A stretch of DNA of 63,349 bases, the filler included, from an uncultured bacterium (lineage in GTDB: Bacteria; CAYSBA01): NCBI GenBank assembly GCA_964429075.1. It is 22 parts of 22 records of this genome, joined end to end, with 100 filler letters (N's around TTAATTAATTAA, not from the genome) between each part and the next. Parts side by side here need not be neighbours in the genome. Positions count along the whole stretch, not along the records: positions 17,856 to 20,690 come from CAYSBA010000249.1; 21 more parts are not named here. One strand, given 5' to 3'. Below are positions 18,899 to 20,989 of this stretch, one piece after another. The notes under the pieces are model-generated. The model saw only the letters and a list, made by a program, of their open reading frames with translations. It had not been told where the DNA came from and searched no databases. Numbering within the stretch: the stretch's first letter is position 1; each line of letters opens with the position of its first letter. A program made the translations under genes and the position numbers.

Positions 18899-18927
18899 TT
18901 GACAAAGTACATTAATAACTGTATAGA
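18899..18927 (+). promoter_or_regulatory. sigma70 promoter of tRNA-Ile2
   Basis: TTGACA-17 nt-TATAGA just upstream of the tRNA. Confidence 0.55.
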
Positions 18928-18940
18928 TAAGGCCATGTTC

Positions 18941-19013
18941 GGGCCCATAGCTCAGTTGGCAGAGCCACCGGCTCATAACCGGAAGGTCCCTGGTTCGAAT
19001 CCAGGTGGGCCCA
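18941..19013 (+). tRNA. tRNA-Ile2 (anticodon CAT, lysidine type); CCA not encoded
   Basis: GGGCCCA/TGGGCCC acceptor stem, GCTC/GAGC D stem, CT-CAT-AA loop, CCTGG-TTCGAAT-CCAGG T arm; the acceptor stem fits Ile2 rather than Met. Confidence 0.9.
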
Positions 19014-19103
19014 CAGACGAAAATCCCTTTCACATTGATAAACGAAAAAATAGGCTCAAGTTACAAGCTGAGAAGTCTAACATATTTCTTTATAAATACT
19101 GTT

Positions 19104-19130
19104 GGGCGCACGGTGCGCCCTTTTTATTTT
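19104..19130 (+). terminator. Intrinsic terminator between tRNA and zinc-ribbon gene
   Basis: GGGCGCA-CGG-TGCGCCC followed by TTTTTATTTT. Confidence 0.75.
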
Positions 19131-19154
19131 TTCAACTTCTAAATGAGGTACATC

Positions 19155-19880
19155 ATGACAGATCTAATGAAAAACTTATGGAAACTTCAAAAGATTGACA
19201 AAGAAATCCTTGCACTTCTTAACGAGAGAGAAGAAAAAGAAGATGTCCTTGATAAGATCAAAGAAGATTTGGACAAAGAGAAGGCATCTTTTGACAAACT
19301 GAAGTCCATGAAAGAAAGCCTTGAAGAGGATAAAGAGGCAAAGGAGCTGATATTAAAAAATCACATAAAAAAGGTCAAGCAGTGGGAAAATAGGCTCATA
19401 GGTATAAAGAGTACAAGAGAGTACAATGCATTACAACGTGAGATTGCCAATGCCAAGGAACTAAAAGACAAGTTAGAAAGTGAGATACTGTATATTCTGG
19501 AAGAAATTGATAAAATAACCACCCGTATGGATGAGATAAACGAAAAGATATCAGAGCTTGAAAAGGAGTTAAAGGAGGCAGAAGATAAGTATAGAGAGAA
19601 GATCAATACATATAACAATAAGATTGATCAGCTAAAAAAACAAAGAGAAGATTTTATCACCGGTTTTGACAAACGGATCATTCATAAATATGAGGCAATA
19701 CGAAAGACAAGAAATGGTATAGGTGTAGCCCTTGTGGTTAACAATATCTGTACAGGATGTAATATTCAACTGAGACCCCAGCTTGCCAATATTATCCAGA
19801 GTGGTAAAGTAATTGAGACTTGTCCAAACTGCCAGCGTCTCATTATATGGGAAGGTTTTATCAATAATGGAGAAGAATAG
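19155..19880 (+). CDS. Coiled-coil C4-type zinc-ribbon protein (DUF164/CT398-like)
   Basis: LWKLQKID, long coiled coil, REYNALQREI, CTGC...CPNCQRLI; likely start is MTDLMK after GAGG (track starts at 19143). Confidence 0.88.
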   Translation: MTDLMKNLWKLQKIDKEILALLNEREEKEDVLDKIKEDLDKEKASFDKLKSMKESLEEDKEAKELILKNHIKKVKQWENRLIGIKSTREYNALQREIANAKELKDKLESEILYILEEIDKITTRMDEINEKISELEKELKEAEDKYREKINTYNNKIDQLKKQREDFITGFDKRIIHKYEAIRKTRNGIGVALVVNNICTGCNIQLRPQLANIIQSGKVIETCPNCQRLIIWEGFINNGEE

Positions 19881-20463
19881 GGATCTCCGGGAAGAGGTCC
19901 TTGGCTTTATAGCTAAAAAGGAACCATTAGAACTTACCCAGAAGAGGTTCGGACTTAATAGAGAAAGGTTAAAGGAGTTAATCCTTGGTACTGCAGAGTC
20001 TATTGATATCTATATCGATGGTGCAGCCCGTGGCAATCCGGGTCCAGCGGGGGCAGGAGTAGTATTTATCAAAGATAATAAAATCAAACATTGCTTCTCT
20101 GAGTTCCTCGGTAACAGGACCAACAATCAGGCAGAATATCTATCTCTGATACTGGCACTTGAAAAGGCAAAAGAATTTGGTTATAAAAAAATAAGAATAA
20201 AAACAGATTCTCAACTTATCTCAAGACAGATAAAAGGGTTATATAAAACTAAAAACGGGATATTGCTGAAACTATTAGATCGGGCAAAAAGACTGCTTTT
20301 ACAGTTTGATAGCTGGGAGATAATTGAAATACCACGAAAAGAGAATAGTAAGGCAGATAGATTAGCAAGAGATGCCAGCAGGGCACGGGAAGGCGACCGC
20401 GTCCCGTTTTCAAAAGAGCGGGATGAGGAAAGTCCGGACTCCAGCGGGCATGGCACTTCGTAA
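19867..20463 (+). CDS. rnhA: Ribonuclease HI with C-terminal extension encoded inside rnpB
   Basis: IDGAARGNPGPAGAG, TNNQAEY, TDSQL, IPRKENSKADRLA; first in-frame stop is TAA at 20461-20463. Confidence 0.9.
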   Translation: MEKNRDLREEVLGFIAKKEPLELTQKRFGLNRERLKELILGTAESIDIYIDGAARGNPGPAGAGVVFIKDNKIKHCFSEFLGNRTNNQAEYLSLILALEKAKEFGYKKIRIKTDSQLISRQIKGLYKTKNGILLKLLDRAKRLLLQFDSWEIIEIPRKENSKADRLARDASRAREGDRVPFSKERDEESPDSSGHGTS

Positions 20464-20690
20464 CACGAAGACCGGGTGACCGGTGGAAAGTGCCACAGAA
20501 AACATACCGCTCCGATCTGCATAGATTTTAGATCGGAGTAAGGGTGAAAAGGTGCGGTAAGAGCGCACCGCTCTGCTCGGTGACGAGCGAGGCATGGCAA
20601 ACCCTGCCAGGAGCAAGGTCAAATAGGGATGCGTTAGAGGGTGCCCGCCCCGAGCATCCGGGTAGACCGCTTATGAGTGCTGCGGCAACG
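20381..20690 (+). ncRNA. rnpB: RNase P RNA, bacterial class A (3' truncated by contig end)
   Basis: GAGGAAAGTCCGGACTCC, GGAAAGTGCCACAGAAAA, AGGGTGAAAAGGTGCGGTAAGAGCGCACC, GGCAAACCC...GGAGCAAG..CAAATAG, GGGTAG..CGCT; P3 hairpin CGTCCCG/CGGGATG. Confidence 0.96.
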
Positions 20691-20790
20691 NNNNNNNNNN
20701 NNNNNNNNNNNNNNNNNNNNNNNNNNNNNNNNNNTTAATTAATTAANNNNNNNNNNNNNNNNNNNNNNNNNNNNNNNNNNNNNNNNNNNN

Positions 20791-20989
20791 GGATACAGCT
20801 TGCCTTTGTTGTTTCTAAGTATTTTTTATATTTGGCATTTCCAAGAAAGGTTATCTCGCCCTCTTTTGCCTCTTCAATAGGTGCAATTCTGGAGATAACT
20901 AAATCTACATTCCCCCTTAATTTTCCTCCACAGATCTCTGCCAGTTCTTTACATGAGAACAGAGTTCTATTTTGTCTTGTATCTTTCAT
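20791..20989 (-). CDS. lpxD: LpxD, N-terminal fragment
   Basis: ELAEICGGKL.G...IAPIEEAKEGEITFLGN.KY; follows bamA-skp. Confidence 0.88.

Follow-up and report, generated by a model that had tools for sequence, protein, structure and literature searches.

In the genome of an uncultured bacterium (GTDB lineage Bacteria; CAYSBA01; assembly GCA_964429075.1), the reading frame of rnhA, the gene encoding ribonuclease (RNase) HI, runs for 83 nucleotides (nt) into rnpB, the gene of the RNase P RNA, on the same strand. The two genes are located on contig CAYSBA010000249.1, which is part of the window, i.e., the whole stretch of 63,349 nt that was analysed. The overlap of rnhA with the RNase P RNA gene is real, and it is rather probable that it represents a tolerated by-product of an old, compact junction in which the rnhA stop codon was lost, with rnpB being matured by 5′ processing. 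The features making up the overlap, in the coordinates of the window, are the following:

19867..20463, + strand: reading frame of RNase HI (RVT_3 type), 198 codons plus TAA, from the listing of open reading frames (ORFs) and Pfam.
20381..20690, + strand: RNase P RNA gene, class A, 5′ portion of ~300 nt, from RF00010; the contig ends before the 3′ third.
20381..20463, + strand: same-strand overlap of rnhA and rnpB, 83 nt, comprising codons 172-198 and the stop.
20400..20424, + strand: P3 hairpin of rnpB, coding for residues 178-186, from the cmscan alignment and recovered by local fold.
20425..20437, + strand: 5′ strand of rnpB helix P4, GAGGAAAGUCCGG, translated as E187-E188-S189-P190, from the cmscan alignment and translation.
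20461..20463, + strand: rnhA stop, the UAA of the conserved L8 loop in rnpB, from the cmscan alignment.
20691..20791, no strand: artificial contig junction (N run, TTAATTAATTAA, N run), which cuts rnpB.

The rnhA frame is open from the ATG at 19867 to the TAA at 20461-20463, and its product of 198 amino acids ends in ...ENSKADRLARDASRAREGDRVPFSKERDEESPDSSGHGTS. The ATG at 19867 was taken as the start codon because P0002, a protein from another source that is 67% identical to the window protein (P0001) and equal to it in length, starts at the equivalent residue, and because the frame of the upstream zinc-ribbon gene ends 14 nt inside rnhA, as is the case for coupled operon genes. On the basis of its Pfam matches, the product is a type 1 RNase H of the RVT_3 subgroup (PF13456/PF00075): RVT_3 covers residues 51-170 (profile positions 3-123 of 123, E 4.7e-20, 72.2 bits with a cut-off of 21.6), and RNase_H matches the same protein with 49.6 bits (E 5.8e-13). 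The residues D51, E90, D114, and D164, which we take to be the catalytic carboxylates (DEDD) of RNase H, are invariant in an alignment of 10 sequences (A1).

A previous reading of the DNA made by eye (hereafter, the sequence-only reading) had proposed that the native stop of rnhA is missing and that the frame overruns its usual end at ENSKADRLA. No in-frame stop occurs before 20461, which bears out the first proposal; the overrun turned out to be shorter. Since homologs usually extend about 8-10 residues beyond ADxLA (NRAIDEFxx), the residues RDASRARE still form the normal last helix, and the extra part amounts to about 23-26 residues. In the AlphaFold model (mean predicted local distance difference test, pLDDT, of 82.9), the last helix comprises residues 157-172 and residues 180-198 have a pLDDT below 50; the tail is predicted to be disordered. 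Folded RNase HI would, according to the model, end almost exactly at the start of rnpB, as the RVT_3 match ends at residue 170 and the last helix at residue 172.

The overlap (27 codons plus the stop, 20381-20463) takes in P1, P2, P3, the 5′ strand of P4, P5/P7, and the 5′ strand of P8 of rnpB, i.e., the 5′ core of the ribozyme, as had been claimed. The Rfam model RF00010 matches positions 20400-20696 (+ strand) with 231.3 bits (gathering score 100, E 7.1e-74), spanning model positions 20-303 of 367. Model positions 1-18 correspond, in the structure line, to the 5′ strands of P1 and P2, and the local match begins at P3 because the contig ends at 20690, so that the 3′ partners of P1 and P2 are missing. 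Going 19 positions back from 20400 places the rnpB 5′ end at 20381; the same end was obtained with nhmmer, using a profile built from 23 full-length, Rfam-delimited rnpB genes, whose position 12 falls at 20392. The two extrapolations, from the covariance model and from the profile, confirm to within a few bases the start near 20381 that had been placed by eye, and the positions then proposed for P1 (GGGCACGGGA), P2 (GGCGACC), and the P3 hairpin are consistent with it. The universal 5′ strand of P4 (GAGGAAAGUCC) follows P3 at 20425-20437 (model positions 43-55), and it is indeed read by codons 187-190 as E-E-S-P; the motif of the P4 3′ strand (ACAGAAC..GGCUUA) has 0 matches elsewhere in the window when up to 2 mismatches are allowed. 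In the cmscan alignment, the TAA that closes rnhA corresponds to the first three bases of loop L8. The contig harboring rnhA and rnpB spans only about 17.85-20.69 kb (2835 nt). The window as a whole consists of separate contigs chained by N runs and the TTAATTAATTAA linker, and genes lying across a linker are not true neighbours. GlyS, also encoded in the window, reaches at most 41% identity with its best hit, indicating that no named organism is a near relative.

P0002, which is known as a protein alone, has the tail KDASRAREGDRVSKFSLRDEESPDSTGHGTS. Over residues 168-198, 7 of the 31 positions differ between P0001 and P0002, and 5 of these fall within the P3 hairpin (residues 178-186), the only part of the tail that differs much between the two proteins. 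The clustering of the differences in this variable hairpin matches the pattern that is predicted if the peptide is constrained by the RNA. Neither the AlphaFold model nor the comparison with P0002 revealed any structure or conserved motif in the overlapped peptide beyond the sequence dictated by the RNA; the idea of a clamp-binding or other motif in the tail was dropped, since none was seen. A protein search carried out with the tail alone (residues 158-198) left 2 of 8 candidates, P0001 and P0002 themselves, the word index being too coarse. The tail peptide ending in ...DEESPDSSGHGTS would be tryptic. As a separate observation, several other RNase HI homologs (P0035, P0070, P0071, L012:920-1378, L070:816-1325, L082, L093, and L113) have Q/D-x-x-L-F-like C-termini, represented by GKLF, GILF, ESLF, DKLF, PTLF, and ADLFL, which presumably resemble the sliding-clamp-binding motif.

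The search for EESP-type RNase HI tails, which the sequence-only reading had recommended, disclosed ten proteins whose C-terminus translates P4 as EESP: P0001, P0002, and P0073 (among the 120 proteins listed), P0269, P0278, P0289, P0291, and P0368 (among 147 further cluster representatives), and the products of the loci L005:2823-3293 and L116:2416-2871, both with rnpB underlying the tail. On a tree of 54 RNase H domains, the deep-overlap state needs 4 changes. The window protein and P0002 form a clade (100/99), and L116 is the sister (100/98) of L105, where the two genes are separated by a 19-nt spacer. With respect to L105, L116 has undergone a deletion of ~38 nt, which took the last 12 codons of rnhA, its TAA, and most of a promoter-like motif preceding rnpB; in the first ~90 aligned nt of rnpB, one position differs between the two. 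Similarly, the overlap of L092 (+8) is related by a frameshift to the 8-nt gap of its sister L102. Among the relatives keeping both genes the overlap is not conserved: sister pairs differ, and P0002 alone shares the overlap of the window. These comparisons indicate that the overlap is a derived, unstable state and that the position of the rnhA stop drifts. At least four to five independent origins of a deep read-through are indicated, with independence established for part of the cases.

An open frame of 27 codons leading into rnpB is unremarkable by chance: from the rnpB 5′ end through P4, the EESP frame is open in 28 of 54 rnpB genes, and each of the other two frames in 30 of 54. In 22 of the 28 genes that are open through P4, the first stop in the EESP frame is the TAA of L8, exactly 36 nt past the GAG of P4; the RNA sets the position of the rnhA stop. 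The ten deep read-throughs share the EESP frame, which is the soonest-ending of the three (median overlap of 80 nt versus 106 and 125 nt for the other frames). The tail encoded in the EESP frame contains 13% basic, 13% acidic, and 38% Pro/Gly/Ser residues, whereas those of the other frames are 21% basic and more hydrophobic. The bias toward one frame is suggestive; it implies that the tail is really translated, and it reads as a filter acting against harmful read-throughs.

In order to place the junction among its relatives, two collections were scanned. In the genome collection (one genome per species, an RNase HI alignment as the query, the best 80 loci kept), RF00010 was found within 3 kb in 24 of the 80 RNase HI loci, in 23 cases downstream on the same strand and in one on the opposite strand, and nhmmer added three partial rnpB copies at locus ends. 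The start of rnpB lies at most 160 nt past the rnhA stop in 18 of these loci; 7 other Rfam-delimited same-strand copies start 618-1453 nt past it, and the partial copy of L054 about 2 kb past it. Haloarchaeal loci account for 9 of the 80. The scan of metagenome contigs, seeded with the alignment of P0001 and P0002, yielded 64 loci from relatives that are 36-49% identical (best segment, short fragments excluded). In 52 of them, rnpB is located directly downstream; the remaining 12 comprise 8 loci cut by contig ends within or at the ORF and 4 that have a flank but no rnpB. Rfam confirmed rnpB in 34 of the 40 metagenome loci submitted, with start coordinates agreeing with the profile estimates. 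No DNA of close relatives came from the JGI metagenomes, and a single-protein scan gave 235 pattern matches and 0 relatives.

Taking other genomes and metagenomes together, 70 tight rnhA-rnpB junctions were obtained, with a median spacer of 9.5 nt (near-duplicates among these loci being L108/L114, L123/L124, L088/L089, and L135/L136/L138). The spacer measures 1-10 nt in 30 of the 70; the rnhA stop precedes rnpB in 60, the genes overlap by at least 1 nt in 10, and the overlap is deep in two, L005 (71 nt) and L116 (73 nt). The gene upstream of rnhA encodes Zn_ribbon_9 plus CT398_CC in 8 of the 10 loci tested (NIF3 and DAHP synthase in the other two), and 37 of 45 loci have a same-strand tRNA-Met(CAT) upstream; these 45, L001 apart, were picked because Rfam had already shown a tRNA there. 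The order of the zinc-ribbon gene, rnhA, and rnpB is conserved across phyla. Since the upstream gene families and tRNA-Met recur among the loci, the cluster formed by tRNA-Met, the DUF164 gene, rnhA, and rnpB is, by this comparison of gene neighbourhoods, of long standing and widely distributed, with the window at one extreme of its spacing.

Other variations of the cluster were observed. Most metagenome loci (L081-L123), as well as L011 and L056, have tRNA-Met(CAT) followed by tRNA-Val(CAC) upstream of the zinc-ribbon gene; such clusters hold two tRNA genes, whose transcripts are RNase P substrates, alongside the RNase P RNA gene. The Nocardia loci L007, L013, L019, and L054 have a longer RNase H frame of about 400-435 codons (ends 4200-4305), and rnpB follows on the same strand after about 950-1000 nt (after about 2 kb in L054); the linkage persists in a loosened form. 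Two rnpB genes are unusually long, L081:3383-4060 (678 nt) and L015:3430-4023 (594 nt), compared with the usual 350-430 nt, which implies large insertions.

In the window, the region upstream of the overlap contains the remaining members of the cluster and the candidate signals listed here; promoter calls are consensus scans and carry no evidence of function:

18900..18928, + strand: sigma-70-type promoter-like site (TTGACA, 17 nt, TATAGA), found by eye, ending 12 nt before tRNA-Met.
18941..19014, + strand: tRNA-Met (CAT), first member of the cluster (Rfam tRNA, 67.7 bits; ARAGORN anticodon cat).
19104..19130, + strand: hairpin rich in GC (GGGCGCA cgg TGCGCCC) with a T run behind it, from the terminator-like scan, preceding the zinc-ribbon gene.
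19143..19880, + strand: DUF164/FlgZ-type zinc-ribbon gene, with a likely start at ATG 19155 behind a GAGG ribosome-binding site.
20298..20324, + strand: promoter-like match in the 3′ part of rnhA (TTTACA, 15 nt, GATAAT; 10/12, short spacer), from the relaxed scan.

The zinc-ribbon gene matches Zn_ribbon_9 (PF02591; 36.6 bits, cut-off 29.1, E 4.7e-09) and CT398_CC (PF24481; 33.6 bits, cut-off 27, E 4.3e-08), and its product, as a DUF164/FlgZ member according to Pfam, consists of a coiled-coil hairpin followed by a C-terminal C4 zinc ribbon. Its frame ends at 19880 and overlaps the start of rnhA by 14 nt. The promoter-like site at 18900 is absent from the stock scan because its −10 hexamer ends in A, and it suggests that canonical promoters are used by this organism. 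The hairpin at 19104-19130 might terminate or attenuate transcription behind the tRNA, or else serve to stabilise a 5′ end. It lies about 12-25 nt before the ribosome-binding site and start of the zinc-ribbon gene. Behind it there is no room for a promoter, so that the operon would either be read through from the tRNA-Met promoter or start at or before the hairpin. The stock scan found no terminator-like site on the + strand in 19121-20690 and no promoter-like site on the + strand in 19811-20690, and neither the stock nor the relaxed scan revealed a −10-like hexamer suitably placed for a start at 20381. From the candidate at 20298-20324, transcripts would begin near 20331, about 50 nt upstream of rnpB; hits scoring at least 8/12 are not enriched there, with 2 in 245 positions in the 3′ region of rnhA versus 16 in 990 positions upstream. 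The earlier remark that no convincing promoter lies just upstream of 20381 agrees with these scans, with this weak candidate as the only notable match. The zinc-ribbon gene, rnhA, and rnpB look like one unit, as had also been suggested; the 14-nt overlap, the lack of a terminator-like site in the scan, and the conserved gene order support this view, and co-transcription may be inferred from them.

A different signal was found in the relatives. In 13 of 34 metagenome loci (among L082-L123), the motif TTTGA[ACT]A[AT][ACT] (TTTGAnAAn) begins 10-17 nt ahead of rnpB, where fewer than 1 match would be expected from its background of 81 matches in 156,495 nt of locus + strands. The rnhA stop codon coincides with the TGA of the motif in 8 loci; in others, a distance of 60-90 nt separates the stop from the motif, which then frequently follows a hairpin. 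Three loci (L098:40, L095:1957, and L122:196) have it ahead of tRNA genes as well, at 15-29 nt. The motif may represent either a −10-like promoter of that lineage or a signal for processing. It was not found before rnpB in the window, in L005, or in L116. The L116 gene keeps a full-length RF00010 match after the loss of the motif, and the fact that it is nearly unchanged over the aligned 5′ part argues that read-through transcription from rnhA can supply rnpB.

The account that we regard as rather probable can be set out as follows. The native stop of rnhA would have been lost in the lineage comprising the window organism and its P0002 relative, and ribosomes would read through P1-P4 up to the first in-frame stop, the UAA of L8, adding an unfolded tail of about 25 residues dictated by the ribozyme. 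Since the rnhA stop lies in rnpB, the rnhA mRNA must extend into rnpB; the RNase P RNA would most probably be made from this same transcript, possibly helped by a weak internal promoter, and would be released by an endonucleolytic cut and/or by 5′-to-3′ trimming halting at helix P1. The overlap would be tolerated rather than selected as a switch, and selection would only filter the read-throughs, leaving the soonest-ending frame and a harmless tail. As no in-frame stop precedes 20461, a cut at P1 would leave an rnhA mRNA devoid of a stop codon; in most relatives, unlike the window, the cut message would presumably keep the rnhA stop 3-10 nt from its new end.

A precedent for such processing is SA1279(gpsB)-rnpB of Staphylococcus aureus. 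According to Linder et al. (2014, PMC3937233), a protein gene on the same strand immediately precedes rnpB there, with no terminator between them, and the long transcript entering rnpB is processed by an endonuclease cut followed by RNase J trimming that stops at P1; a start site of its own is also considered possible for rnpB. In S. aureus, the upstream gene is gpsB, its ORF ends before rnpB, and the RNA is of class B, whereas in the window rnhA extends 83 nt into a class A RNA, and only in the window would a cut at P1 remove the stop codon of the upstream gene.

Several observations weigh against the proposed account. Co-transcription and processing are deduced from the gene layout, and a promoter-like match (20298-20324, 10/12, 15-nt spacer) does exist within rnhA. 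If TTTGAnAAn is a −10-like element, rnpB is usually transcribed alone, and the tight spacing is therefore no proof of co-transcription. Support is weak for the deep branches of the tree, and the branches with good support force only 1 change. Lastly, the overlap has persisted over the 33% protein divergence between P0001 and P0002, and the occurrence of ten of ten read-throughs in one frame would mean that selection sees the tail, so that a function is possible.

An alternative explanation is that rnhA and rnpB are two independent genes, rnpB being transcribed from a promoter of its own inside rnhA, with a short leader that is trimmed, and the rnhA mRNA reading through without any processing link. 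This is unlikely. In Escherichia coli, where rnpB is at the tail of the garPLRK-rnpB operon, its expression depends on the intra-operonic promoter rnpBp (bioRxiv 10.1101/2020.03.04.975888), which speaks for such a promoter. The window resembles that arrangement in having rnpB at the tail of an operon, up against the stop codon of the preceding gene, but lacks a convincing promoter at the corresponding place. The location of TTTGAnAAn directly before rnpB in relatives, with its TGA doubling as the rnhA stop in 8 loci, and the match TTTACA-15-GATAAT at 20298-20324 of the window also speak for an own promoter. However, the motif is missing from the window, L005, and L116, and in the last of these a deletion removed most of it while leaving an rnpB near-identical to that of L105 over ~90 nt, with a full-length RF00010 match. 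The candidate of the window has a poor 15-nt spacer and belongs to a class of hits not enriched over the background, and the canonical promoter of tRNA-Met on the same contig leads one to expect a canonical one for a highly expressed RNA.

The sequence-only reading had further suggested that the production of the two ribonucleases might be coupled as an either/or choice. The overlap and the unit layout on which this idea was based stand, but the overlap as a switch does not fit well with 60 of 70 junctions keeping their stop, with the scattered occurrence of the deep state, with its recent origin by deletion in one case, and with a tail predicted to be disordered. In the regulatory form of the idea, each transcript would either have its tail translated or see its ribozyme folded or excised, and a cut at P1 would give a stop-less mRNA subject to tagging by transfer-messenger RNA (tmRNA), which implies that the output of RNase HI falls as the maturation of RNase P RNA rises. 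The geometry does make a stop-less mRNA unavoidable if the cut occurs at P1, P0002, a relative of 67% identity, retains the overlap, and the presence of all ten deep read-throughs in one frame, even though each frame is open in 28-30 of 54 rnpB genes, points to selection on translation. We nevertheless consider regulatory coupling improbable: the rnhA stop precedes rnpB in 60 of the 70 related junctions, overlaps arise by small deletions or frameshifts in single lineages, and the tail is predicted to be disordered and shows no motif. Moreover, the frame bias is explained equally well by a filter against harm, which would leave the shortest overlap and a neutral tail rich in Pro/Gly/Ser, and the long-range helices P1, P2, and P4 would form only after the 3′ end has been transcribed, so that a rarely translated mRNA need not compete with them. 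A purely mechanical coupling, in which the product of each transcript cut at P1 would be marked for destruction, RNase HI would come only from transcripts whose ribozyme is still unexcised, and the single frame would reflect selection keeping ribosomes from going beyond L8, appears distinctly improbable as well.

The soundness of the assembly was also evaluated. The only run listed as holding 19143-20690 is X1, DNA from a hot-springs metagenome, with 0.97 of the sampled words. A Logan contig of X1 covers 19143-20567 with 0 differences and 0 gaps; as X1 may be the window's own sample, this contig represents a second assembler, not second reads. The check for an indel or a lost stop, advised beforehand, thus revealed none in the X1 contig, possibly from the same sample. 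The summed contig depth rises to 462-1660 at 20495-20598, in the conserved core of rnpB, and the Logan contig with rnhA ends at 20567; the contigs break inside rnpB because this core is common to many organisms in the sample. A chimeric join as the source of the overlap was rejected in view of the identical X1 contig and of the same tail in P0002. Loss of the true stop through an error of sequencing or assembly, be it an indel or a chimera joined in the rnpB core, is extremely improbable, for although the source contig is short (2835 nt) and ends inside rnpB, whose core is shared by many organisms in the sample as the depth spikes show, the contig of the second assembler agrees over 19143-20567 with 0 differences and 0 gaps, P0002 has the same architecture and length although it comes from another source, and nine other proteins carry the same kind of tail.

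A tolerated by-product of an old junction can also be compared with what is known of the cluster. In the accessible part of Pereira et al. (2011, PMC3372290), which deals with HP0958 and CT398, tRNA-Met, the DUF164 gene, and rnhA are drawn as neighbours in several phyla, and the location of rnpB behind the DUF164 gene in Borrelia burgdorferi is treated as a peculiarity of Borrelia. The order of that cluster is the same as in the window, and the same part of the paper mentions no general rnhA-rnpB linkage or overlap. Neither a general linkage of rnhA to rnpB nor an ORF that runs into rnpB was found described in the open-access literature, supplements lying outside the scope of the search; the only related mention found is that of an annotated ORF inside the rnpB of S. 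aureus.

Single RNA stretches that are both coding and functional exist among noncoding RNAs (ncRNAs) generated at the 3′ end of a coding region lying upstream and among dual-function RNAs such as SgrS. Such RNAs show conservation of the overlap or of the embedded promoter, linked to their function, whereas conservation of the overlap of the window was tested and not found.

In the window, P4, the universal catalytic strand of an indispensable ribozyme, doubles as protein-coding sequence, and a conserved loop of the RNA provides an enzyme gene with its stop codon. The overlap is thus a natural example of extreme gene packing in bacteria, with neither product broken. The comparison is worth more than the individual case: many phyla have the RNase P RNA linked to RNase HI, DUF164, and tRNA-Met, the spacer between rnhA and rnpB being usually shorter than 10 nt, which raises the question of how the RNase P RNA acquires its 5′ end outside the model organisms. 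The frame bias, in turn, suggests that ribosomes entering the gene of a structured RNA impose a cost visible to selection. The single overlap is probably neutral.

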